This document shows positions 6,772-60,971 of a stretch of DNA of 64,000 bases, in pieces. Within the stretch, counting starts at the first letter, position 1, and every line of letters starts with the position of its first letter. The notes beneath the pieces were generated by a model. That model searched no databases, had not been told where the DNA came from, and worked only from the letters and a program-made list of their open reading frames with translations. Origin of the DNA: Patescibacteria group bacterium (GTDB taxonomy: Bacteria > Patescibacteriota > Minisyncoccia > Phycocordibacterales > UBA9973). A program made the translations under genes and the position numbers. The DNA lies in the NCBI GenBank assembly GCA_038063515.1, contig JBBTUY010000006.1, positions 26,505-90,504 on the forward strand, given 5' to 3'.

Positions 6772-9189
6772 CTATTTTACCTCACCGAAATTGTTACCTG
6801 AGCCGTAGTGCACTTCGAGTGGAATATCCGTCTTGTATTTGAGATATGATCTCTGTAAAACTCCCTCCATCGCATCTTTTATTATTTTACTCGATTTTTC
6901 AAGAACACTCTCTTCTATCTCATATACCAGCTCGTCATGAATCTGAAGTACAAGATGAACTTTGTCGAGAAGTCCTGCCTTTTTTAAGTCTTCATGAGTA
7001 TATCTAATAGCGAGCTTTATGATGTCAGCTGCTGTCCCCTGCACTGGAGCATTTATAGCTGTACGTTCTGCCATATTTTTCAAAAAAGGTATGCGGGAAT
7101 TTATATTTGGGAAATATCTTTTTCTTCCAAATAAAGTCTCGGTATATGTATTTTTTGTCGCCATAGCTTTTACATTTTCCAAATAGTCCCGTATCCCAGA
7201 AAACTGGTGAAAATAATTATCGTAAAATTTCTGCGCTTCTTCGCGTGTGCCACCAAGATTTTTCTTAAGCGCTGAGACTCCCATCCCGTACAAAATACCA
7301 AAGTTTATCACCTTTGCTTTTCGGCGCATCTCACTATCAACCTTATCTACAGGTACGCCAAATACAAAAGATGCCACTCCTGAGTGCACGTCCTTTCTAT
7401 CATAAAAAACTTGCGTCATTTTCTTATCTCCTGAGAGCATGGCTGCAACACGGAGCTCCACCTGAGAGTAATCAAAAGCTGAGAGCTTATAACCTTTTGG
7501 AGCTATGAAGCCATTACGAATACGCCTACCAAGCTCACTCTTAATAGGTAAGTTTTGTAAATTAGGATCAATAGAAGAAAATCTGCCAGTCGTCGTCGCA
7601 TTTTGTAAAAACTTAGAATGAAGCCTATTATCCTCTCCCGCCATTTGAGGGATGACGTCTATGTACGTAGAGAGAAGTTTTTGTAATTCTCTGTATGAGA
7701 GTATTTCTTTTATTATAGGGTTTGCTTCTTCGAGTTCTTCTAATACAGATACTTTAGTAGAGAAAGATCCACTCGCATTTTTCTTTTTACTTGTTTTAAT
7801 TCCCATCTTATCAAACAGAATTTCTCCTAATTGTTTTGGAGAATTTACGTTAAACTCTGCACCAGCTAATTTATATATCTTCGTACGAAGTTTTTCTAAC
7901 TCTTTATGATACTCTTTACTCAAAGTAGTGAAATAATTTTTATCTATTAAAATACCGTGATTTTCTATCTCTTTTACTATACCTATAATCGGATATTCTA
8001 TCTCTTCATAAACCTTTTCTAAATTCTTCTCTTTTAGTTTCTTGAAAATGTTTTCATAAGCGACATTAAAATCCTCGGTTTTTCCGAAAATAAAAATATC
8101 TTCTAATTTAGGATTACTAATATCTGAATTAACTATCCACAAAGCGATACTTGCTTCTTGAAGTTTTTGGTCAGGAGCCCTCGGAAGAAAGTTTTGGAGC
8201 TGGTCTGGCCGGGGTAGGGGCCCCGGAGAACCGAGGACCCGAGAAAACTTTGCTTCCGAGGGCTCCTGACTGCTGTTGTTAAAAAATATTTTAAGTCGTG
8301 CAAACAAGCTACGAAATTCGTATTGAATAAAAGTCTTTTCAATTTTCTTTAAGTCAGCAGCTTCCCAAAATGTTTTCTCTGGTATGGAGAATTTAATAGG
8401 CGCATCAATGCGTATTGTTGCAAGAGTTTTTGAAAACAAAGCTTCTTCTTCATTGTTCTTAATAAGCTCTACTATCCTTGGACTTAAGCCACTTTTCTTA
8501 AATTCACTTTCATCTTTCTTTATCTTTTTGTAAATTTCTTCGATCGTACCAAAATTTACAATTAAAGTCTCAGCTGTCTTCTCACCAATACCTTTGATAC
8601 CTATAATGTTATCAGACGGATCTCCGCGGAGGCCCTTATAGTCTGGCAAAAGTTTTGGTTTGAATTTAAATCTTTCCAACACTTTATCTTCATCATATAA
8701 AATAGTGTCGTTAATTCCCTTTTTCAAAGTGTAAACCTGCACCTTTTTACCATCTATTAACTGCATGGTATCCATGTCTCCTGAAGCAATTATTATCCTT
8801 ATAGTCTTGTCCTTATGATACAAGTGAACAATGGTTCCCAATATATCATCAGCTTCAAAACCCGGAGCGTCGTAAATAGGTATATTAAAAGCTTCAAAAA
8901 TATTTCGAGAGCTTTTAAGCTGGGAAATTAATGCTTCGTCGGCTTTTGCCCTGCCTGCCTTGTATTCTTTATAAGCTTCATGTCTAAAGGTTTTCTGAGG
9001 TAGGTCATAACAAGCCACTATGTAGTCCGGCTTTAGGTCTGTGATTATCTTCATAATCATCGTAGACAGACCGTAGAGAGCCCCTGTAGGCACGCCATCA
9101 GACGAGAGAAAGTCGGGTAAGGCATGATACGCCCTGTGTATTATCGCGTGTGCATCAAGCAAAACAAGTGTTTTAGTAGTTTTGTTCAT
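6772..9189 (-). CDS. polA: DNA polymerase I (5'-3' exonuclease plus polymerase domains; compact, 805 aa)
   Basis: The N-terminal LVLLDAHAIIHRAYHA..GFEADD gives the FEN-like 5' nuclease domain. The C-terminal motifs RRKAKVINFGILYGMG and QIHDELVYE are the family A motifs B and C. The ORF contains an in-frame 112-bp GC-rich palindromic insertion at 8169-8280. Confidence 0.9.
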   Translation of the reverse strand: MNKTTKTLVLLDAHAIIHRAYHALPDFLSSDGVPTGALYGLSTMIMKIITDLKPDYIVACYDLPQKTFRHEAYKEYKAGRAKADEALISQLKSSRNIFEAFNIPIYDAPGFEADDILGTIVHLYHKDKTIRIIIASGDMDTMQLIDGKKVQVYTLKKGINDTILYDEDKVLERFKFKPKLLPDYKGLRGDPSDNIIGIKGIGEKTAETLIVNFGTIEEIYKKIKKDESEFKKSGLSPRIVELIKNNEEEALFSKTLATIRIDAPIKFSIPEKTFWEAADLKKIEKTFIQYEFRSLFARLKIFFNNSSQEPSEAKFSRVLGSPGPLPRPDQLQNFLPRAPDQKLQEASIALWIVNSDISNPKLEDIFIFGKTEDFNVAYENIFKKLKEKNLEKVYEEIEYPIIGIVKEIENHGILIDKNYFTTLSKEYHKELEKLRTKIYKLAGAEFNVNSPKQLGEILFDKMGIKTSKKKNASGSFSTKVSVLEELEEANPIIKEILSYRELQKLLSTYIDVIPQMAGEDNRLHSKFLQNATTTGRFSSIDPNLQNLPIKSELGRRIRNGFIAPKGYKLSAFDYSQVELRVAAMLSGDKKMTQVFYDRKDVHSGVASFVFGVPVDKVDSEMRRKAKVINFGILYGMGVSALKKNLGGTREEAQKFYDNYFHQFSGIRDYLENVKAMATKNTYTETLFGRKRYFPNINSRIPFLKNMAERTAINAPVQGTAADIIKLAIRYTHEDLKKAGLLDKVHLVLQIHDELVYEIEESVLEKSSKIIKDAMEGVLQRSYLKYKTDIPLEVHYGSGNNFGEVK
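8169..8280 (-). repeat. GC-rich palindromic mini-element (copy K2, inverted orientation), in-frame inside polA
   Basis: The core tggtctggccggggtaggggccccggagaaccgaggacc is the reverse complement of the uvrA and rsmA cores. Flanking inverted arms are ggtcaggagccctcggaag / cttccgagggctcctgac. It encodes ..SSQEPSEAKFSRVLGSPGPLPRPDQLQNFLPRAPDQ.. with no stop. Confidence 0.8.
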
Positions 9190-9231: not shown

Positions 9232-9328
9232 AAAATATAATTTTTGGAGGGGTCTCGCGGCTGTCGAGCTGAGAGTTTCAGGATTTTTTAAGCTTCAAAA
9301 AATCTGTACCGGAAAAAATTGATATTTT
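9232..9328 (+). repeat. Intergenic structured repeat (family S, copy 1) in the polA/gspE divergent region
   Basis: Matches TTTTTGGAGGGGTCTC-[hairpin]-GAGAGTTTCAGGATTTTTTAAGCTTCAAAAAATCTGTACCGGAAAAAATTGAT, closed by the local inverted repeat aaaatataatttt / aaaattgatatttt. Confidence 0.8.
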
Positions 9329-9371
9329 ACAGGTTTCATAATTTACCAACTTAAGCTATAATTTATCTATT

Positions 9372-22550: not shown

Positions 22551-22652
22551 AAATAAAATAATTTTTGGAGGGGTCTCTCGGCTGCCCTGCCGAGAGTTTC
22601 AGGATTTTTTAAATTTGAAAAATCTGTACCGGAAAAAATTGATTTTATTTAA
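22551..22652 (+). repeat. Intergenic structured repeat (family S, copy 2) between convergent jag and the T4SS-like operon
   Basis: tttttggaggggtctctcggctgccctgccgagagtttcaggattttttaaatttgaaaaatctgtaccggaaaaaattgat. The internal hairpin arms differ from copy 1 but still pair (ctctcggc/gccgagag). The closing inverted repeat is aaataaaataattttt / aaaattgattttattt. Confidence 0.8.
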
Positions 22653-22658
22653 TCTAAA

Positions 22659-40956: not shown

Positions 40957-43566
40957 TTATTGTAGTTTTAATTTATTTAAATCTCCATTTTTTTCTGCAT
41001 ATTGCAATGCTCGTATCACATACTGTTCAGCTGTCTCAGGTTTTTTGAAGAGAATACTGCCAGATGTGTTGCTTTTTGGCTCTAATCCTGTTGTCTCATA
41101 TATCTTTTTTAAGTAATTCATTAGTGGGCTTTCTGGAACATAGTTACCATCTTTTACATTTTGAAGTAAATCCCTCACTTTAAAGGTCTTCATACTGAAC
41201 CACTCAGCTGCGTATGTGCTATTGTGTGCTTGTGTCATGTGCAATATATTTTCTTTGTAGACTTTAGCAGTTTCTGCTAGCTCCTCCGTTGTGAGGTTGA
41301 ATTCATTTTTTATAAAATCAGTGTTTTTGAGTGCTGGATTTTCTTCTAAAATTTTTGCAATATTACTTCTCGTATCTGGTGCACTACTTGTATTATTTAT
41401 ATTTCCTCCAGTCGTTGCTTCAGGAGCTTCTGTTTTAATATCTAAATTTTCTGGTTTGATAATATTATATTGACCAAATAATTTATTTCTTATATCAGTT
41501 TCTGTGAGTAATTTATCTGTTTCTAATACTTCGCTCCTTATCTGGTCTGGTGTTGCTCCACCTAGCCCTCTATGAGGATGTTCTGTTAGAATTTTATTTA
41601 TTCTTTCTTCTTGTGTAAGTATTGGTTTTGTCTCTGTTGTATCAATAACAGGACTTTCAGCTTCTGTCGGTTCTATTTGGGGTCGTTCTATATTTTGATC
41701 TTCAGCTGGCATTTCTACCGTTGGTGTATGTAGCTTTGCTACAGGTATTTCTTTTTTATGAACTGTATCGTAAGGATTATCAGGATTTTGTCCAAAATCA
41801 GCTCCGTTCGGGTTAGCATAAGTAGCTAGCACATCACCTTTTATATCTACTTCTGTAACTGTAAAATTTCCTTTTGTGTCTGCTGTAATTTGGTAGCCAA
41901 CTTTATCTGCTTCCATTATTCTAACTTCCCGACCAGTTTCTGGGTCAACATATCCTTTTTCAATAGCTATGCCATGTGCTTTGTGTTGAGCAAATATATG
42001 TAATGCTTTTTTGTCTGTGATGTCTCCCTTAAATCCTAATTTTTCTGCGAGGTCAGTATTATTTTCTATTTGTCTGATAAATGCATTCTCTATTCCTTCA
42101 CCTTGATGTACAACTGCATCATCTATAACAGCTACTTTTTCAGGAGCCACACCGTCAGGCATTTTCATTCTTCCGCCTAAGTCTGTTTCACCACTTGATG
42201 CTTTTGGAATTTCTGGTGTCGGGGATACTTTTACTATTGGTGTGGCTTCCGAGGAGGCTGATGTTACAGGAGGAGTTGTATTTGGAGCTGTGCTTGTTGT
42301 CGGTTTTTCAGCTGTTGTGTTTATATGCTTTTCAGATGACACAGGTATATCTCCTAATTCCCTTCCTATTGCTATAGATGTTGTAAGTCCTAACGCTAAC
42401 CCACCCGCTGCCTTCATCACAAGGAGTGCTCTTTTATCTTTCTTCTCCCTTCCCAAGATTTTTTCGTATTGTATTTTTGTTTGATCTAAATTTTGTATAT
42501 CAAATGTTGTACGAAGTTCTTCCGTTGTATTTTCTCTTAATTTCGTAGTGAGTTTACCAAGAGTTTTATCAACTAACATTCCCCAGCCCTTTCCTATTGT
42601 TACTGATCCAGCTACACGCGCAGCTTTTATTCCTAAAAATGTTGCTCCTTGAAGAGTTGTAGAAACTCCACCAGTAATTATTGCAAAAATAAGAGAAAGT
42701 CCTACTGAGGCAGCTAGCCTTTTTGTAGGACTTAGTTTTAAATACGCATCTAATGCTTTACCCACGAGACCTCTCTCCTTCGCTGGTAAACTTTCTGCCT
42801 TAGCTAGTATTAAAGTCTTTTGTTCTTCTATGATTATTCTTTGAAAGATTTCATTTTGTTTATAGTTATTTAAAGCTGGGTTTGTAGTTGATTGATCTAG
42901 CCCGAGCTCTTCTTGTTTTGTTTCATACATAGCTTTGCCGAGAATTATGGTGGCAGAGGTATATTCAGATTCAAGCTTTTTTAAATCTTCCGGTGTCTCA
43001 CTTTCTTTTATTGTTTTTCCAACTAAGGATTCATATGCATATCTTACCTTACCTAAAACACCCTTCCTTCTGTCTTTTATAAATTTCTGATATGCAGTAA
43101 CGTATGCATCTCTAGCCGCTGTTAATGCAGCTTCTTCTCGTGATCCGAGAACACCTTCCTGCCTTACCTTAACTCTCGTATTTTCTGTGCTTGTTCCATG
43201 GGCTAGTCTGTACAGATGTTCTTTTATTTCCTGATCTTCTTTTTTACGAGCTTCCTCTTCTTCTGGAGTTAGTTCCCAGGGATCTTTAAAATCATTTTCA
43301 TCCTCTACTGGAGGAATAAATCTTCTGACCGCGTTTACTTTTTTAGGTTCTGTTGGAACAGGGGTTGGTTCACTCTCATTGTTTACTACGGGCTGTTCAT
43401 CTACCTTTAATTCTCTTTCTAATATTGCAATCTCTGCAGCATTTTTCCTAATTCTTTCTTCCTTACTCTTATCAAGTTTCTGCAGCTGCTCTTTTAGCTC
43501 TGCCAGGTCTTTAGCCTCTTGTTCTTCCTCGGTTTGATCTTTCTTTGTATTTAAATCTTCAGTCAT
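40957..43566 (-). CDS. Large hypothetical protein (869 aa) with a central hydrophobic segment and coiled-coil N-terminus
   Basis: Charged coiled-coil N-terminus, a membrane segment around LAASVGLSLIFAIITGGV and a Thr/Pro-rich linker. No recognised domain. Confidence 0.45.
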   Translation of the reverse strand: MTEDLNTKKDQTEEEQEAKDLAELKEQLQKLDKSKEERIRKNAAEIAILERELKVDEQPVVNNESEPTPVPTEPKKVNAVRRFIPPVEDENDFKDPWELTPEEEEARKKEDQEIKEHLYRLAHGTSTENTRVKVRQEGVLGSREEAALTAARDAYVTAYQKFIKDRRKGVLGKVRYAYESLVGKTIKESETPEDLKKLESEYTSATIILGKAMYETKQEELGLDQSTTNPALNNYKQNEIFQRIIIEEQKTLILAKAESLPAKERGLVGKALDAYLKLSPTKRLAASVGLSLIFAIITGGVSTTLQGATFLGIKAARVAGSVTIGKGWGMLVDKTLGKLTTKLRENTTEELRTTFDIQNLDQTKIQYEKILGREKKDKRALLVMKAAGGLALGLTTSIAIGRELGDIPVSSEKHINTTAEKPTTSTAPNTTPPVTSASSEATPIVKVSPTPEIPKASSGETDLGGRMKMPDGVAPEKVAVIDDAVVHQGEGIENAFIRQIENNTDLAEKLGFKGDITDKKALHIFAQHKAHGIAIEKGYVDPETGREVRIMEADKVGYQITADTKGNFTVTEVDIKGDVLATYANPNGADFGQNPDNPYDTVHKKEIPVAKLHTPTVEMPAEDQNIERPQIEPTEAESPVIDTTETKPILTQEERINKILTEHPHRGLGGATPDQIRSEVLETDKLLTETDIRNKLFGQYNIIKPENLDIKTEAPEATTGGNINNTSSAPDTRSNIAKILEENPALKNTDFIKNEFNLTTEELAETAKVYKENILHMTQAHNSTYAAEWFSMKTFKVRDLLQNVKDGNYVPESPLMNYLKKIYETTGLEPKSNTSGSILFKKPETAEQYVIRALQYAEKNGDLNKLKLQ

Positions 43567-43578
43567 AAAATATTTAAA

Positions 43579-45423
43579 TTATTTAAATTCTACCACTAAA
43601 TTCCCATTTTCTATATACATTTTATTAACTTTTCTATTTTTACCATCATTTTTCTCCACATACTCCCTTAGTATTTTACCAATTTCTCTTATTTTAGGTT
43701 CCATTTTTTCTATGATAAGACTCCTCACTATCATGTTTGCTCTAATATTTTTTTGATCAAAAGATCTTACTCCAATTTCATCACCTATATTTTCTAATAT
43801 AATGTTTATGCCAACCTTCATAGAGCCTGTGGTTGTAACTATTTCTGTATTTAAACTTAAACTATTTCCGTCTTTATTTTCGAGATTAATTTCCCTAACA
43901 GATTTTATGTTTAAGTTTTTTTTAAGCAAATTCTCTATCTCTTGTTTTATTTCCACTATTGAAAAAGTTTTTATTTTAGGTTCTTGTTCTAACAACTTAT
44001 TTTCCTTTCTTTTGGCCATTCTTCTTTCTATAGCTGTAATTTTCGCTAATATTGCCTGTCGCATCTCTTCTTCTTCCGCATCTTCTTTCTGTTGTTTTCG
44101 TAGTAGTTCTAGTCTTGCTATACGTGGGTCTATCTGAGTTGCAGCTTTTTTTTCTTTTATTTCATTTTCACCAGTTCGACGTTGTGGTGCTGGATTATAA
44201 AAACCGTATGTTACATTTGTGCCATAATCTGTTGGTTTGCCTTGCCTAATACCAATATCTTTTGTATATTTTTTTTTAAACTCAACATCTTCTTCTAAAT
44301 CTGTTTTTCCAGATGCTACTTGTGTGCTTGCGGGTGTTTTCAATTTCTCTGAATCCTTTTCAGTAAGTGCTTGTTGTATGTTTAATAAACGGTTTATTTC
44401 TTGGAGTATTTCATTTGCGGTCGGGTCATTAGTAAGATCTTCATCACTATTACCATTCCTTCTACTACTTTCATATACACCATAGAGTAAAGCTCTGGCA
44501 TTGTATTCTTTGGTTTTGAAATATTCTATTGGTTTTGAAGTCAATAATATTAAATCAGTCCTGGTATGGTATAGATTTTCTAAATTTGTTTGATTATTTA
44601 AATCCTCATCCTCTGCAATCTTTGCTCTATTTATTAAAATTTCAAATTCGTCATTGATCATTTGATCAACACTCTCTATCCCAGTAGTAGGAACTTTATA
44701 TTTCTCATAGTTAAATTCAGGAGTGATTGGTGTTGTTTCTGTCAGTACTTCCGTTGGTGCAGAGGTTGCGGCTTCCATCTTTTCGGTTCTTGCCTGTATT
44801 TCATCAGGGGTGGGATTTAAAAGTTTTATTTCCTGTGTAGGTGCTTTTTCCTTAGGTTTCGTTATGTATATATGTCGTTGTGCAGCTTCTAGTTCTTCTA
44901 TTATTTCTATATAGATATCCGAAAGTCCCTTCATATGCTGGTCAGTTTTTCCATTCTCTTTCCATTTCTTCCATATTTTTTTTCCTTCTATTTTAAAATA
45001 CTCAATAGGATTTTTAGATAAGATTTTTATTCTTCTTGATGCCTCGATCTTGCTAACCTCTTGATCTTGAAGATCACCACTAATTATTTTGATATATCTT
45101 TCTTTTGCTTCAGCAATAACTCTTTTTGTTGTCGGAGATAATTTATTTAACTCTAAAACATAAGCATAGGATGACTCGATAGGATCATCTGCTTTATAAG
45201 GAACTTTTTTATTCTTATCTTGTTTGCTTTGGTCGATGCTTTTAGGTTGTTCTACTGTAGACACTTCAGCTGTTTCAGGTATCCGTTGCATGGTACCGCT
45301 GTGTACGGTATTTGCTTCCTTAGATTCAACAGGTTCTCCACTTTCATCAACGTCAATAATAGGACTTCGTTCATAGTCATTTGAAGTTCTTTTTGTTTGT
45401 AGTAATTTTTTTTCTCCTGCCAT
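43579..45423 (-). CDS. Large hypothetical charged protein (614 aa)
   Basis: Highly charged and Lys/Glu-rich with no TM. It overlaps no other gene. No recognised domain. Confidence 0.45.
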   Translation of the reverse strand: MAGEKKLLQTKRTSNDYERSPIIDVDESGEPVESKEANTVHSGTMQRIPETAEVSTVEQPKSIDQSKQDKNKKVPYKADDPIESSYAYVLELNKLSPTTKRVIAEAKERYIKIISGDLQDQEVSKIEASRRIKILSKNPIEYFKIEGKKIWKKWKENGKTDQHMKGLSDIYIEIIEELEAAQRHIYITKPKEKAPTQEIKLLNPTPDEIQARTEKMEAATSAPTEVLTETTPITPEFNYEKYKVPTTGIESVDQMINDEFEILINRAKIAEDEDLNNQTNLENLYHTRTDLILLTSKPIEYFKTKEYNARALLYGVYESSRRNGNSDEDLTNDPTANEILQEINRLLNIQQALTEKDSEKLKTPASTQVASGKTDLEEDVEFKKKYTKDIGIRQGKPTDYGTNVTYGFYNPAPQRRTGENEIKEKKAATQIDPRIARLELLRKQQKEDAEEEEMRQAILAKITAIERRMAKRKENKLLEQEPKIKTFSIVEIKQEIENLLKKNLNIKSVREINLENKDGNSLSLNTEIVTTTGSMKVGINIILENIGDEIGVRSFDQKNIRANMIVRSLIIEKMEPKIREIGKILREYVEKNDGKNRKVNKMYIENGNLVVEFK

Positions 45424-45462
45424 GTAAGTATATTATATAACTTACATGAACAGAGGACAAAT

Positions 45463-45518
45463 TATCTCGAAGTTCCGATGAGATATTTCCTTGGATTTTC
45501 ACCGAGGTCTACGAAGTC
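45463..45518. repeat. 57-bp direct repeat (left copy) flanking the toxin-antitoxin cassette; non-coding copy of the NYN gene 3' end
   Basis: ttatctcgaagttccgatgagatatttccttggattttcaccgaggtctacgaagtc is identical, bar one mismatch, to 46135-46191. Confidence 0.85.
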
Positions 45519-45524
45519 GTTTGC

Positions 45525-45800
45525 CTAAAAAAGCTCTGAATGCGTGCCCATGTCAAATAATACCAAAACCAATTCCTGGTTCTTTATGTAATATATCAAA
45601 AGAATGTCAGGTCTTATGTGACACTCTCGAAAACCTTCAAAATTTCCTTGTAATGGATGGTCTTGATACTTACGGTCGAGCTTTTGTACAGATGCTAAGA
45701 CATCTATAACAAACTCGACTTCTTCTCTCTTGATTTTTCCTGAACGAGCTATCTTCTTGAAAGATTTTTGAAACCGTTTTGTGTAATGTCTGTAATACAT
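45525..45800 (-). CDS. Type II toxin, RelE/YafQ family mRNA interferase
   Basis: 91 aa. HYTKRFQKSFKKI...DHPLQGNFEGFRECHIRPDILLIYYIKNQELVLVLFDMGTHSELF matches the YafQ family signature (..GY/FRECHI.PDWLLIY....L.L.R.G.HS.LF). Confidence 0.8.
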   Translation of the reverse strand: MYYRHYTKRFQKSFKKIARSGKIKREEVEFVIDVLASVQKLDRKYQDHPLQGNFEGFRECHIRPDILLIYYIKNQELVLVLFDMGTHSELF

Positions 45801-45803
45801 ATC

Positions 45804-46085
45804 TTATTTTACCCTTTCCATGTCATCAAACATCTCTTTTGTTGAAGAGTATCTCTTGCCATGCTTTATGGCTTGTTCCGCCTCTTTTTTATATGTAGCT
45901 AGCATTTTTGGAGTGTATTTATGCATAAAGCCGAACGGGCATATATAGGTAGTACTTTTTGGGTCCCCTACCTGGGTTAAAAGATATTTTATACCAGAAG
46001 ATAAATCCAGTCCCATGTCCTTAAAAGCCTTTTTAGCTTTTGTTTTTGTGGATGCATCTATTCTTATTTGTATAGTTGTACTCAT
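45804..46085 (-). CDS. Antitoxin, DinJ/RelB family
   Basis: 93 aa with the N-terminal IQIRIDASTKTKAKKAFKDMGLDLSSGIKYLLTQV ribbon-helix-helix pattern. It sits immediately upstream of the toxin with a 3-bp gap. Confidence 0.7.
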   Translation of the reverse strand: MSTTIQIRIDASTKTKAKKAFKDMGLDLSSGIKYLLTQVGDPKSTTYICPFGFMHKYTPKMLATYKKEAEQAIKHGKRYSSTKEMFDDMERVK

Positions 46086-46134
46086 AGCTACATCATATAT
46101 TTATGTAATGACAATGTCAATACAACAATAATCT

Positions 46135-46191
46135 TTATCTCGAAGTTCCAATGAGATATTTCCTTGGATTTTCACCGAGGTCTACGAAGTC
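46135..46191. repeat. 57-bp direct repeat (right copy), which is also the last 18 codons of the NYN gene
   Basis: The reverse strand encodes DFVDLGENPRKYLIGTSR*, the C-terminus of the 46135..46647 protein. Confidence 0.85.
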
Positions 46192-46647: not shown

Positions 46648-46685
46648 AGTTTGATTGTATCAATAAGGTATAAGTAAAGCAAAAA

Positions 46686-46807
46686 TAATAAGATTTCCGA
46701 AAACCGAAATTTTTGTCGGTACAGATTTTTTGAAGTTTAAAAAATCCTGAAACTCGCGGCTCGACAGCCGCGAGACCCCTTAAAAATTTGTTTCCGGAAA
46801 TCTTATT
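46686..46807 (-). repeat. Intergenic structured repeat (family S, copy 3, long form, inverted orientation)
   Basis: The reverse complement contains ttaaggggtctcgcggctgtcgagccgcgagtttcaggattttttaaacttcaaaaaatctgtaccgacaaaaatttcgg. The closing inverted repeat is aataagatttccgaaaac / gtttccggaaatcttatt. Confidence 0.8.
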
Positions 46808-46857: not shown

Positions 46858-47121
46858 TTATGCTAAGTCCATTTTCTTCATGAGTGCGTTGTAGCGAGTC
46901 TTGTCCTTGCGTTCGAGGTACTTTAGGTGTGTACGTCTGTCCGCAACCATCTTTATAAGACCTCTACGAGAGTGATTATCCTTTTTATGTTTCTTTAAAT
47001 GTTTCGCAAGTTCGTCAATTGAAGTAGACAATACAGCTACCTGCACCTCTGGAGAGCCTGTATCCTTGTCATGTATCTGATTTTTCTTTATAACTGCCTG
47101 CTTTTTCTTTGTAGCTATCAT
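46858..47121 (-). CDS. rpsO: 30S ribosomal protein S15
   Basis: 87 aa with GSPEVQVAVLSTSIDELAKHLKKHKKDNHSRRGLIKMVADRR, the conserved S15 core. Confidence 0.9.
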   Translation of the reverse strand: MIATKKKQAVIKKNQIHDKDTGSPEVQVAVLSTSIDELAKHLKKHKKDNHSRRGLIKMVADRRTHLKYLERKDKTRYNALMKKMDLA

Positions 47122-47220: not shown

Positions 47221-48138
47221 ATGGCTTCCCTAAAGCAACTCAAAACTCAGTTTCTAGAATACACAGAAATAGAAAAAGGGCGGGCTGCAAGGACTTTAGA
47301 AAATTACGATCATTATCTCAGTAGATTTTTAGCGTACATAAAGACTGACGATCCTAAAAATATAACTGATGAAAAAGTCCGTGAATTCCGTATCTGGTTA
47401 AATAGGCAATCAAATAATCACAAGAGCGACATAGAAACCCTTTCTAGGAAAACCCAAGGGTACCATTTGATAGCTATTCGTGCGTTTTTGAAATATCTAG
47501 TGAGGCAAGGAGTTGCTTCTATGGCCCCTGAGCGTATCGAGCTACCAAAGATTCCCGAACGTTCCCTCGACCTTATCACCAGAGAAGAGCTCCAAAGATT
47601 GCTCGATTCTCCGAGTACTACAGACCTGCAAGATCTGCGAGATAAGGCTATTTTAGAATTATTGTTTTCTACGGGTCTACGTGTCTCAGAATTGTGTTCA
47701 CTTACTGTTGATCTCAATCTCTCTTCTGATGAGCTCTCTATACGGGGTAAGGGTGGCAAGGTGCGTGTGGTCTTTTTGTCACCTGATGCGAAAAAACATA
47801 TAAGAGAATATCTTAAAGCTCGTAAAGACATGAGTGAAGCACTATTTGTGCAGCTTCCAGCTAAAGGAAAAGAAAATAAAAAAGAGGTAGAAGCTCTCAC
47901 GAAGAGATCAGTAGAACGTATGGTAAAACAGCGTGCAATACAGTCTGGTATTTCAAAAAAGGTTACCCCGCACGTGATACGTCACTGCTTCGCGACAGAT
48001 TTGCTAAGTAACGGTGCAGACCTCCGCTCTGTTCAGGCTATGCTTGGACATGCGAGCATATCTACCACTCAGATATATACACACGTGACTGATAAACATT
48101 TGCGTGACGTACACAAAAAGTTTCACAATAGTAAATAA
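47221..48138 (+). CDS. Tyrosine recombinase, XerC/XerD family
   Basis: 305 aa. The C-terminal catalytic domain has R..HVIRHCFATDLLSNGADLRSVQAMLGHASISTTQIYTHV (R-H-R-Y tetrad with the terminal Tyr). The N-terminal core-binding domain is present. Confidence 0.85.
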   Translation: MASLKQLKTQFLEYTEIEKGRAARTLENYDHYLSRFLAYIKTDDPKNITDEKVREFRIWLNRQSNNHKSDIETLSRKTQGYHLIAIRAFLKYLVRQGVASMAPERIELPKIPERSLDLITREELQRLLDSPSTTDLQDLRDKAILELLFSTGLRVSELCSLTVDLNLSSDELSIRGKGGKVRVVFLSPDAKKHIREYLKARKDMSEALFVQLPAKGKENKKEVEALTKRSVERMVKQRAIQSGISKKVTPHVIRHCFATDLLSNGADLRSVQAMLGHASISTTQIYTHVTDKHLRDVHKKFHNSK

Positions 48139-48140
48139 AA

Positions 48141-48265
48141 AAAATAAGATTTACAAAAACCGAAATTTTTGTCGGTACAGATTTTTTGAAGCTTAAAAAA
48201 TCCTGAAACTCGCGGCTCGACAGCCGCGAGACCCCTTAAAAATTTGTTTTTGTAAATCTTATTTT
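48141..48265 (-). repeat. Intergenic structured repeat (family S, copy 4, long form, inverted orientation), directly downstream of the recombinase gene
   Basis: Same core as copy 3 (about 95% identical). The closing inverted repeat aaaataagatttacaaaaac / gtttttgtaaatcttatttt differs from copy 3 but still pairs. Confidence 0.8.
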
Positions 48266-57125: not shown

Positions 57126-57238
57126 AATAACAAAGACACTTTTTGGAGGGGTCTCTCATCTGGCGAGATGAGAGTTTCAGGATTTTCCAAGCTTCGGAAA
57201 ATCCGTACCGAAAAAAAGTCGGTCTTTGTTATTTTATT
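57121..57238 (+). repeat. Intergenic structured repeat (family S, copy 5) between convergent ZIP and M23 peptidase genes
   Basis: The core has hairpin 1 tctcatct-ggcg-agatgaga and hairpin 2 gattttCC-aagcttc-GGaaaatc (a double compensatory change relative to copies 1-4). A 24-bp site-specific closing inverted repeat is aataaaataacaaagacac / gtcggtctttgttattttatt. Confidence 0.8.
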
Positions 57239-58337: not shown

Positions 58338-58748
58338 ATAAAATACCGCAAGATTTCCTTTCTAGCCCAAAATTTACATAAGAAAATAAGGGTAGAATTG
58401 CAGGACGACCATATTTATATAGTGCTGCACTCGCCAAAGGCGATAAGGTTCTTACGATGGTTACTATCTTTACAGGGTTTCGGTGGGGTCTGTCGGGCTC
58501 CTTTACGGGGGTATGTATTAAGGGTAGTTCAATTCACCTACCAAGTCAACCCAAATGTGGATAACTTTATTTTGACTGATTTTTGTTTTATTGTGTAATA
58601 AATAGGTTAAAAATTTGTATTTTTGAGTTAAAAGTGGTAATGTAAGGGTACTTATAAATTAATTTGTTCGTATTTAGACATATAGTAGTGTTCTTATTGA
58701 ACAATACTCCAGTCTGGATACGAGCTCTACCCATTTGGGTTTAAAAAC

Positions 58749-60866
58749 ATGCAAAAAAAGGAATATTCTGTTGAGGTAGGAGGCAAGACGCTTACAGCTA
58801 TCTTTACTGATCTCTCAGATCAGGCTCATGGGTCTGTAATGCTAAAATATGGCGATAGTGTGGTTATGGCTAATGTCTGTATGTCTAAGGACAGCCAGGC
58901 AGGGCTCGGGTATTTCAACCTTACAGTGGACTATGCAGAGAAGTTTTATGCCGCAGGGAAAATCCTCGGCTCACGTTTTGTACGAAGAGAAGGGAAGCCT
59001 TCTGAAGATGCAATTCTTGCAAGTCGTGTCATAGATCGTACTCTTCGTCCGCTCTTTGACCAGTCTATACGTCATGCAGTGCAGGTGATTGTGACTGTGA
59101 TCGCAGTTGATGACAATGATCCTACTATCCTTGCTGTAAATGCGGCATCTCTCGCACTTGCAGTATCAAACATCCCTTGGGCAGGGCCTATTGGATGTGT
59201 ACGTATTGGAAAGTATGACAGTGACGAGCTTGTTATAAATCCTTCACAGAAACTACGCCAAGATGATTCTACATATAAATACGACCTCACTATCTGTGGT
59301 AAAGACGGAAATATAAATATGATCGAGGCTGCAGCTCACGAAACTACAGAGGAAGAGCTTGCTGAAGCATTTAAAAGAGCAAGTATTGAGATAACAAAAT
59401 TAGAAAATTTCCAGAAAAGTATTGTCAAAGAAATAGGTAAAGAAAAAAGAGTGATAGAAAAAGGCACGATCAGTGCTGAGTCTGTAAAGCTTTTTAATGA
59501 AAATATAAGACCTAAGATGGAGAAAGCTATTTTCTCTGGTCCAGGTAAAAAGGAAATAGATGAGTTACACACTATATGGAACAATTTAGTGCGTGAAACA
59601 TTTACAGAGCAAAAAGATTTCTCCCATGAAGACAATTTATTTGATGATACAGAAAATGAAATCCTGCATAAGAAAGCAATAGAGGACAACAAAAGAGCAG
59701 ACGGAAGGGATATGGATGGACTTCGTGATTTGTATGCACAGGCAGGAGGAGTGTCTTCAGTGTTACACGGTTCCGGTATTTTTTACAGAGGGGGGACACA
59801 TGTACTTTCTGTGCTTACTCTCGGTGGACCAGAAGATAGAAACCTCGTAGACGGTCTACAGCTCAAAGTAGAAAAAAGATTTATGCATCACTACAACTTT
59901 CCTCCGTATTCTGCGGGAGAAGTCGGACGATCTGGTTTTACTAATAGACGAGAAGTAGGCCACGGTGCACTTGCAGAAAAGGCTCTCGCTATGGTGCTTC
60001 CCCCCGTTTCTGAATTTCCATATACTATAAGACTCGTATCTGAATCTATGGCATCAAATGGCTCTACTTCACAGGCTTCTATCTGTGCATCAATACTCGC
60101 ACTCATGGATGGAGGTGTACCTATAAAGGCACCAGTCGCTGGTATTGCTATGGGACTCATGTATGAGAGCGATGATAAATACAAAGTGCTCACTGACATT
60201 CAAGGTCCCGAAGATCACCATGGTGATATGGATTTTAAAATTGCTGGTACACGTGCGGGCGTCACAGCTATACAGCTCGATGTAAAAGTAGAGGGCGTGC
60301 CTATAAAGATTCTTTACGAAGCAATGGTGCAGTCTAAAAAAGCTAGATTTAGTATCATTGATGCAATAGAAAAAGAAATTCCTAGTCCACGTACTGAGAT
60401 ATCTTCTAATGCTCCTAAAATTTTAATAATAAAAATATTCCCAGATCAGATCGGAATGGTGATAGGTGGCGGAGGTAAAAATATAAAAGAATTAAAAGAA
60501 AAGACAGGAGCCGAGATAACAATTGAGGATGATGGAACTGTGTACTTTACTGGTAAAGACGGCTCTGCCGAAAAAGCACGAGACATGGTACTCGAGATGA
60601 CGCATGAGTTTAAAGTAGGGGAAATGCTCTCAGGTGAAGTTGTGAAAGTTGCGGACTTTGGTGCGTTTGTGAGACTCAATGCTTTTTCTGATGGACTTGT
60701 GCACATTTCTGAGATGGCACCATTTCGTGTTGAGAGAGTTTCAGATATAATAAAAGAAGGAACAATCGTGCCCGTGAAAGTTATCAAAGTTGATAGAGAA
60801 AACGGAAAGATAAGTCTATCTATCAAAGAGGCAAATATTGATTTCTTTAAAAATATTAAAATATAA
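58749..60866 (+). CDS. pnp: Polyribonucleotide nucleotidyltransferase (PNPase)
   Basis: 705 aa with two RNase PH domains, a KH domain (IPDQIGMVIGGGGKNIKELKEKTGA) and a C-terminal S1 domain (GEVVKVADFGAFVRL). Confidence 0.95.
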   Translation: MQKKEYSVEVGGKTLTAIFTDLSDQAHGSVMLKYGDSVVMANVCMSKDSQAGLGYFNLTVDYAEKFYAAGKILGSRFVRREGKPSEDAILASRVIDRTLRPLFDQSIRHAVQVIVTVIAVDDNDPTILAVNAASLALAVSNIPWAGPIGCVRIGKYDSDELVINPSQKLRQDDSTYKYDLTICGKDGNINMIEAAAHETTEEELAEAFKRASIEITKLENFQKSIVKEIGKEKRVIEKGTISAESVKLFNENIRPKMEKAIFSGPGKKEIDELHTIWNNLVRETFTEQKDFSHEDNLFDDTENEILHKKAIEDNKRADGRDMDGLRDLYAQAGGVSSVLHGSGIFYRGGTHVLSVLTLGGPEDRNLVDGLQLKVEKRFMHHYNFPPYSAGEVGRSGFTNRREVGHGALAEKALAMVLPPVSEFPYTIRLVSESMASNGSTSQASICASILALMDGGVPIKAPVAGIAMGLMYESDDKYKVLTDIQGPEDHHGDMDFKIAGTRAGVTAIQLDVKVEGVPIKILYEAMVQSKKARFSIIDAIEKEIPSPRTEISSNAPKILIIKIFPDQIGMVIGGGGKNIKELKEKTGAEITIEDDGTVYFTGKDGSAEKARDMVLEMTHEFKVGEMLSGEVVKVADFGAFVRLNAFSDGLVHISEMAPFRVERVSDIIKEGTIVPVKVIKVDRENGKISLSIKEANIDFFKNIKI

Positions 60867-60954
60867 ATTTTGGAGGGGTCTCTCATCTGGCGAGATGAGA
60901 GTTTCAGGATTTTCCAAGCTTCGGAAAATCCGTACCGGAAAAATTTGATATTTT
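60858..60954 (+). repeat. Intergenic structured repeat (family S, copy 6), immediately after the pnp stop
   Basis: About 97% identical to copy 5 across the core. The closing inverted repeat is aaaatataaatttt / aaaatttgatatttt. Confidence 0.8.
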
Positions 60955-60971
60955 AATATTTTTTACTACAA

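Follow-up and report, generated by a model that had tools for sequence, protein, structure and literature searches.

In E. coli experiments, single crossover of a circular molecule is documented to duplicate the homologous segment (109-950 bp) around the insert, and duplications of this sort made up most of the events recovered (PMC3240628). For Rhs arrays and type VI secretion system (T6SS) arrays, one-sided-homology insertion that displaces old gene 3' ends downstream is the proposed model (PMC5361080), and Patescibacteria are reported to retain homologous-recombination genes as well as DNA-uptake machinery (PMC12455944). Here, we describe a toxin-antitoxin (TA) operon bracketed by two direct copies of a 57-nucleotide (nt) sequence, namely, the 3' end of a NYN/LabA-like gene (NYN), in a 64-kb stretch of contig JBBTUY010000006.1 from a Patescibacteria bacterium. 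This whole stretch, hereafter the window, comes from a metagenome-assembled genome and was matched to GCA_964356965.1. We favor, with a probability of roughly 0.58, a reading in which the repeat was left behind by one recent recombination between two versions of the locus, with and without the TA, and is not the trace of a dedicated mobile element.

A repeated NYN gene end around a toxin-antitoxin operon

The two 57-nt copies lie in direct orientation at 45462-45518 and 46135-46191 (plus-strand numbering) and are identical at 56 of 57 positions, with a spacing of 673 nt from start to start and 616 nt (45519-46134) between them. Their sole mismatch, G/A at repeat position 16, is synonymous in the NYN frame (ATT versus ATC, both Ile). 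Read on the minus strand, the right copy comprises the last 18 codons and the stop codon of NYN (encoding DFVDLGENPRKYLIGTSR), and the left copy is an orphan that starts 6 nt past the toxin stop codon; its far end lies 38 nt ahead of the ATG of a gene for a 614-amino-acid (aa) protein, 2 nt short of the promoter-like site of that gene. The edges of the repeat are sharp, in that identity between the flanks is at background (about 30 to 45% in this AT-rich sequence) on both sides. A match of this kind was recovered in 0 of 100 shuffled sequences, the expectation for a chance pair of this length being about 1e-21, and no third copy was found within the window with up to 3 mismatches allowed. A first-pass annotation of this DNA had described a repeat with one mismatch, whose right copy encodes the last 18 NYN residues and whose left copy is an orphan, and this description is confirmed. 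Its coordinates required correction, as the left copy begins at 45462 rather than 45463, and the interval reported as 672 bp measures 616 nt (673 nt being the start-to-start period). Nor does that interval hold exactly the toxin and antitoxin genes, since 49 nt of promoter/operator sequence and a spacer of 6 nt lie there too.

The exact NYN, toxin, and 614-aa proteins, with the same neighbors, were found on 7 contigs from NCBI and ENA assemblies. In a second NCBI record, the 614-aa protein (MEK7564567), the toxin (MEK7564568), and the NYN protein (MEK7564570) are numbered in keeping with this gene order. Logan contig L084 starts at position 12 of the repeat, which would be where the mismatch first makes a k=31 graph unique.

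The orphan shares the reading frame of the toxin gene, from which it is set apart only by TAG and two codons (45519-45527, minus strand), at 1-in-3 odds by coincidence. Read-through of the toxin stop codon would append a 20-residue tail after the read-through codon, which is probably coincidental. A tblastn-extended similarity of the orphan to NYN residues 136-152 was spurious, as it overlaps the toxin C terminus in the toxin frame and crosses a stop codon.

Judged by profile matches, the bracketed segment appears to be an intact type II TA operon of the YafQ/RelB type, and the first-pass statement that the repeat duplicates the NYN terminus around such an operon was upheld by both the repeat scan and these matches. 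More specifically, the toxin scored 102.8 bits against the YafQ profile PF15738 (cutoff, 30), matched HP0892/YafQ structures in the PDB at the sequence level (E values of 1e-19 to 1e-8), and aligned to 4nrn such that the DHPL, RECH, PD, and GSHSELF motifs line up. Homologs numbered 72 at E ≤ 1e-10; among 45 of them, H48, H87, and L90 were invariant and H61 nearly so, and we assume for the conserved motif residues the catalytic role that they have in E. coli YafQ. The antitoxin gene lies 3 nt upstream of the toxin gene, and residues 4-44 of its product weakly match the ribbon-helix-helix N terminus of the RelB/DinJ type (PF04221; 25 bits, cutoff 22.4). The antitoxin is 69 to 75% identical to the partners of close toxin homologs and 49% identical to that of lineage L094 (relatives are referred to by L numbers), and it yielded no sequence match in the PDB. 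A promoter-like site (TTGACA-17-TATGAT) begins 15 nt past the NYN stop codon, and its -35 element is overlapped by the palindrome TGACATTGTCA, which lies within the operator motif TTGTATTGACATTGTCATTACA that is kept ahead of the antitoxin gene in L085, L089, and L091. Toxicity of the toxin, its neutralization by the antitoxin, and autoregulation at this operator are putative, a consensus promoter with a conserved palindrome being what the sequence shows. We found no terminator-like site between the toxin gene and the 614-aa gene, so transcriptional read-through from the former into the latter is possible.

The slot downstream of NYN

Toxin homologs of 59 to 80% identity were all located on Patescibacteria-type contigs, and those with a readable context (L085, L089, L091, L094, L182/183, and L185) without exception lay between NYN and pnp, on the downstream side of NYN. 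Where contigs reach far enough, Xer is followed by rpsO and NYN, in some cases by an additional gene, and then by antitoxin, toxin, and pnp. The TA lies 0 to 50 nt from the NYN stop codon in L085, L089, and L091, and no TA-bearing relative has related sequence past the toxin stop codon. Neither a flanking direct repeat of 13 nt or more nor a copy of the NYN end past the toxin was present in the other Paceibacteria lineages with the TA, of which there are at least six. Likewise, a second NYN end occurred only in this genome among 103 NYN loci tested. The first-pass annotation had considered the TA unusual for a reduced genome and the flanking repeats a mark of its insertion; the former view is not supported, given that the same TA family recurs at this very locus in Paceibacteria, and neither is the latter, as a general signature, given the six lineages that have the TA in the same slot without such repeats. 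The TA of L094 (44 to 59% identity) is far more divergent than the housekeeping genes of L094 would predict, indicating that the slot has been filled or exchanged more than once. When metagenome contigs were scanned with the toxin profile, the matches listed were mostly distant YafQ proteins from gut and soil, with only L093 and L094 being close, and a toxin search of viral contigs returned no relatives. L185, which also has the NYN-adjacent TA, carries a second, divergent YafQ/RelB pair (8493-9034, minus strand) just downstream of pnp and a 282-aa gene, so that in this case TA modules cluster around the NYN-pnp operon.

Across Paceibacteria, the stretch that separates NYN from pnp is a hot spot for accessory genes. 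We compared 80 related NYN loci (species representatives), 71 of which had enough downstream sequence for the NYN-pnp distance to be counted. In 22 of these 71, pnp lies no more than 450 nt from NYN (in the closest, the pnp promoter starts within about 5 nt of the NYN stop codon), 20 have 0.5 to 3.6 kb of other sequence between the two genes, and 29 have no pnp in the flank. Among the inserts are a ParE/RelB-like TA pair (L038), ORF6N (L075), a GDSL lipase (L067), a serine hydrolase (L077), and a NYN paralog (L027). The Xer gene stands beside rpsO-NYN in 76 of the 80 loci, all 80 being without the TA after NYN, and it is also present in those TA-bearing loci whose contigs extend that far.

The four lineages with the closest NYN all lack the TA. 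In L173-175 (NYN protein, 97% identical), NYN is followed by a 436-aa open reading frame (ORF), a 98-aa ORF, and UvrD; in L176-178 (96%), by an 863-aa ORF that is 31% identical to the 869-aa ORF of the window, then DUF5663 and UvrD; in L179-181 (95%), by a 271-aa ORF, a 764-aa ORF (30% identical to the 869-aa ORF), DUF5663, and UvrD; and in L189, whose NYN falls into the same 90%-identity cluster as that of the window, by a 699-aa ORF with an amidase domain (Amidase_2). The 271-aa ORF, as found in L179, is 32% identical to the C-terminal 180 aa of the 614-aa protein. UvrD was seen in L173-L181, with DUF5663 before it in L176-177 and L179/L181, and the order of the window clade is accordingly NYN, fast-evolving large ORFs, and UvrD, preceded by DUF5663 in the window and two relatives. 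All of these closest relatives have a single NYN end, then 50 to 83 nt (with a promoter-like TTGACA..TATAAT in the inspected sister loci), and then a large, poorly conserved ORF.

These closest relatives are empty sites at the level of gene order, and they are not conspecific, because their NYN DNA is only about 80% identical to that of the window. The empty-site comparison proposed in the first-pass annotation is therefore borne out as to TA-less sisters in which a single NYN end precedes a large ORF, but not as to conspecific DNA. Neither of the two outcomes that would have spoken against that annotation, i.e., a TA-less duplication in relatives or a 57-mer widespread as a generic repeat, was seen. 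Sliding-window identity placed the window NYN DNA closest to the sister genomes along its whole length, with no switch of closest relative that would mark a donor-derived mosaic. Over the last 60 aligned NYN columns, it was 75 to 78% identical to the sisters and 57 to 70% identical to TA-bearing relatives. By gene order, both the NYN-TA adjacency and the empty site exist in related species; neither was met at conspecific DNA identity.

In the clade of the window, the linkage between NYN and pnp is broken, and we claim only this much of the rearrangement history. The pnp gene of the window lies 12.6 kb from NYN on the opposite strand, where it adjoins an M23 peptidase gene, and has kept its conserved promoter and leader. 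A simple 13-kb inversion was rejected as the cause of this displacement, as more distant relatives have an M23 peptidase gene and UvrD downstream of pnp, which points to a more complex history. When the 614-aa protein was searched against 5.8 billion proteins, only itself was recovered, which indicates that the right flank of the slot is hypervariable.

Origin of the duplication

At this locus, a segment of a resident gene is directly duplicated on both sides of an insert, and one boundary lies at the end of the homology, as in a recombination scar. We propose that the TA unit (operator-promoter, antitoxin, and toxin; about 640 nt) is an accessory unit that lives just downstream of NYN in the rpsO-NYN-pnp cluster, and that two versions of the locus were joined, one reading NYN-TA-... 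and the other ...NYN 3' end, 614 promoter, 614 gene. Their joining would have taken one illegitimate junction at 45518/45519, linking the position 6 nt past the toxin stop codon to that 57 nt before the NYN stop codon, plus one ordinary homologous exchange, and this junction would be the sole arbitrary breakpoint. By one route, a circularized fragment would integrate via a single crossover (Campbell type); by another, a linear fragment would integrate via homology-facilitated illegitimate recombination (HFIR), giving the same product. The repeat would end exactly at the NYN stop codon because the TA-bearing and TA-less versions stop being alike there. Since the copies are nearly identical and both of the resident type, the event was presumably recent and its partners conspecific or nearly so, if not parts of one genome, and the low identity of the NYN 3' end to that of TA-bearing relatives argues that neither copy came from a distant donor. 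The same two observations run counter to taking the first-pass notion of a TA captured into the chromosome as a capture of foreign DNA.

The proposed recombination would leave the NYN protein complete, the orphan with the 614 promoter, and the TA with its own promoter. In loci of the canonical order, in which both the NYN and the pnp flanks are conserved, a double crossover could move the TA without a scar, which fits the lack of repeats there. With pnp rearranged away in the window clade, even close genomes differ in the right flank of the slot, and a flank this variable would lead one to expect a scar. Once present, the repeats would permit precise deletion of the TA by homologous recombination, restoring a sister-like site, and toxin addiction would be expected to counterselect such deletion.

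Several points weigh against a recombination scar. We found no conspecific genome that is TA-less or that bears the TA without the repeat, and the parental versions have thus not been observed as DNA; all 7 to 9 contigs of this species share the filled arrangement; and no toxin closer than 80% identity, and hence no donor, was found. Any microhomology at the junction would show only in the parental sequences, and the distribution is as compatible with ancestral presence followed by losses in the sisters as with a gain here. Moreover, 57 nt is short for efficient RecA-dependent exchange.

An alternative that we consider unlikely is local duplication in a single genome, in which the TA was resident between NYN and the variable ORFs, and a replication template switch or slipped repair placed a copy of the final 57 nt of NYN on the far side of it. 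Such an origin agrees with both copies being of the resident type (98% identical), with the NYN-adjacent TA being old and widespread, and with the presence of the TA on every sampled contig of the species. However, it demands that a non-tandem, dispersed 57-nt copy hit precisely the gap that runs from the toxin stop codon to the 614 promoter and that the TA was lost independently in four sister lineages, and no other dispersed gene-end duplication of this kind is seen within the window.

It is rather improbable that a foreign TA fragment was captured at a staggered double-strand break, fill-in of which would give a true 57-bp target-site duplication with no need for homology. The derivation of both copies from resident sequence, the compactness of the insert, and the unrelated sequence past the toxin stop codon would all suit such a capture. 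Against it, the insert stands right after the NYN stop codon, as it does in the distant relatives L085, L089, and L091 (0-50 nt), which fits arrival together with a NYN context better than random capture; the repeat scan lists no terminal inverted repeats for the insert ends, and a transposase gene is absent; and 57 bp far exceeds the target duplications known from bacteria. Insertion of a transposon, an insertion sequence, or a miniature inverted-repeat transposable element (MITE) is not supported, given that the repeat scan detected no inverted-repeat pair at the insert ends, that the duplication is 57 nt long, and that there is a single copy. Target duplications of such elements are short (2-14 bp). 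The first-pass reading of a cassette insertion with a long target duplication is accordingly partly right; the duplicated NYN terminus and the gene-order empty sites stand, but a mobile-element signature is missing.

We consider it quite improbable that the TA operon is, by virtue of the repeats, a minimal flip-in/flip-out cassette in need of no recombinase, which would loop out as a 673-bp circle and re-enter conspecific NYN termini after DNA uptake. The predicted junction of this circle would run from the toxin end through GCAAAC, the 57-mer, and AGATTATTG to the TA promoter. If such a cassette existed, toxin addiction would bias it toward retention, the NYN terminus would be a de facto attachment site, and the mode of cassette mobility would be specific to naturally competent, reduced Patescibacteria.

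Very improbable, and largely refuted, is site-specific recombination, in which the 57-mer would be an integron attC or an attachment site for the neighboring Xer recombinase, similar to those of integrative mobile elements exploiting Xer (IMEX) or of pdif modules, with the TA as a mobile cassette. A tyrosine recombinase gene does lie 1 kb from a small cassette with direct repeats on either side, and Acinetobacter plasmids are known to carry TA modules between Xer sites. However, the Xer gene occupies this position in TA-less loci (the 76 of 80 mentioned above) as well as in TA-bearing ones, so that a link of the TA to the Xer gene, which the first pass had noted within 2 kb, is not supported, and the TA-bearing relatives examined have no flanking repeats. 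Among relatives, the 57-mer varies mainly at codon third positions, with no evident extra conservation at the DNA level, and its single-strand folding is no better than that of shuffled sequences (z from -1.0 to +1.1). No other copy of the 57-mer turned up in the window or in the metagenome and viral collections, an exact 24-mer from the repeat giving zero matches in the contigs of either collection. No integron integrase gene is present, and the sole nearby tyrosine recombinase is the Xer type shared by most relatives. An integron attC was rejected on the folding of the single-stranded DNA and the lack of IntI, and a Xer-dependent IMEX/pdif module on the absence of DNA-level conservation in the 57-mer and on the six TA lineages without a flanking repeat. 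Both checks named in the first-pass annotation, i.e., for attC or recombinase-core features and for further copies, gave no signal, the search for copies covering the window and the metagenome and viral collections, and its proposals of site-specific recombination into the gene terminus and of a mobile element are not supported.

Finally, an assembly artifact, by which a separate TA-bearing molecule sharing the 57-mer was threaded into the chromosome, is unlikely to the point of being hardly credible: the metagenomic source and the Logan contig that breaks inside the repeat would be compatible with it, whereas the same order recurs on the 7 NCBI/ENA contigs (including the second NCBI record with matching numbering), the mismatch base is linked to the respective flank of each copy, and reads of 100 to 150 nt would be expected to span a 57-nt repeat.

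Surroundings of the operon and known systems

The features of the locus and its neighborhood are listed in Table 1.

Table 1. Features of the TA locus and of the displaced pnp gene in the window
Feature	Position	Strand	Evidence and remarks
869-aa ORF	40957-43566	-	No Pfam domain
614-aa ORF, lineage-specific	43579-45423	-	First of the clade's variable large ORFs after NYN; no Pfam match
Promoter-like site of 614-aa gene, TTGTCC-17-TATAAT	45432-45460	-	Promoter scan; begins 2 nt past orphan copy
Orphan copy of NYN 3' end	45462-45518	-	56/57 identical to 46135-46191; non-coding remnant, in frame with toxin ORF behind TAG + 6 nt
6-nt spacer GCAAAC (minus strand), toxin stop codon to orphan	45519-45524	-	Flank identity falls to background here
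YafQ-family toxin gene, 91 aa	45525-45800	-	PF15738, E = 1.2e-29
RelB/DinJ-like antitoxin gene, 93 aa	45804-46085	-	PF04221, E = 1.8e-5
Putative TA promoter/operator region	46092-46134	-	TTGACA-17-TATGAT at 46120..46092; promoter scan, 11/12 consensus positions
Functional 57-mer copy, true NYN 3' end	46135-46191	-	C terminus DDFVDL(G/S)ENPRKYLIG.. typical of NYN homologs
NYN/LabA-like gene, 170 aa	46135-46647	-	PF01936, E = 1.3e-34; downstream of rpsO in nearly all related loci
rpsO	46858-47121	-	At this position in most relatives, with or without TA
Xer-type tyrosine recombinase gene	47221-48138	+	Divergent from rpsO; location shared by most relatives, TA or no TA
Displaced pnp (58749-60866) with promoter and conserved leader hairpin	58612-60866	+	In many relatives directly follows NYN or TA

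The 614-aa and 869-aa ORFs (40957-45423, minus strand) together look like a hypervariable locus, possibly one for cell-surface or host-interaction proteins. Upstream of the displaced pnp (ATG at 58749), the leader hairpin (58666-58725, plus strand) is apparently conserved in most of 12 aligned Paceibacteria sequences, that of L089 looking divergent. Of its 22 predicted pairs, 14 show compensatory changes, and it has no Rfam match at E ≤ 1. This hairpin may serve in autoregulation, by analogy with the leader of E. coli pnp. A fairly GC-rich, non-coding stretch of 270 nt (58340-58610), likewise with no Rfam match, separates the M23 peptidase gene from the pnp promoter and lies at or near the breakpoint that parted pnp from NYN. 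Rfam searches of the TA locus and the region upstream of pnp returned tRNAs only.

The window also contains six intergenic copies of a MITE-like repeat family (about 100 to 130 nt) with 16- to 26-nt terminal inverted repeats and a GC-rich hairpin (CTCGCGGCTCGACAGCCGCGAG). Four copies share one orientation (9233-9336, 22554-22657, 57132-57235, and 60859-60962), and two have the opposite one (46681-46807 and 48137-48263). One pair brackets rpsO and xer, and another brackets the M23 peptidase gene and pnp. Relatives of this family occur in L003, L007, and L011, in L007 also between the pnp leader and pnp.

The locus does not represent a new kind of mobile element or recombination system; it combines a type II TA at a hot spot with a probable recombination scar, both of known kinds. 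Its value is that of a clean natural example of accessory-gene movement within streamlined, uncultured Patescibacteria, in which a TA pair sits in a fixed slot behind a conserved gene, and where the far flank is not conserved, recombination would leave a gene-end duplication with both neighbors functional. In a broader sense, the junction downstream of rpsO-NYN is a hot spot of both rearrangement and insertion across Paceibacteria.

Among described systems, islands that integrate into tRNA or tmRNA genes, integron cassettes, and Xer-dependent IMEX/pdif modules resemble the locus in their flanking direct repeats and in the restored 3' end of the target. In contrast to these, the insert in the window has no integrase and the repeat no att-like conservation or structure, the same TA occurs elsewhere without repeats, and Xer is present irrespective of the TA. 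A second parallel is offered by effector-immunity arrays of Rhs/contact-dependent inhibition (CDI) and T6SS loci, where an incoming module anchored in the conserved upstream gene displaces the old 3' end as an orphan, HFIR being the mechanism proposed (PMC5361080). Here, however, the orphan derives, as a stub of 57 nt, from a housekeeping-type NYN gene and is not a toxin tip with its immunity gene, it has no evident function, and the locus records a single event and not an array.

As for the operon itself, DinJ-YafQ of E. coli and the HP0892/HP0894-type system of Helicobacter pylori share with it a toxin that fits the YafQ profile and has conserved histidine-containing motifs, an upstream antitoxin with a RelB/DinJ-type N terminus, a 3-nt gap between the genes, and a palindrome on the -35 element. 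The TA of the window differs from them in that its antitoxin is only weakly RelB-like (25 bits) and has no sequence-detectable solved relative, and in that it resides in a Patescibacteria host, in a fixed chromosomal slot after NYN.

With regard to the duplication, Campbell-type integration and HFIR provide the comparison that we favor. The E. coli duplications measured 109-950 bp (PMC3240628) versus 57 nt in the window, and they were obtained by experiment, whereas the process in the window would be reconstructed from one natural product, with parental molecules not observed. What the two have in common is a homologous segment that flanks the insert as a pair of direct duplicates, one boundary being where homology ends and the other a junction without homology.

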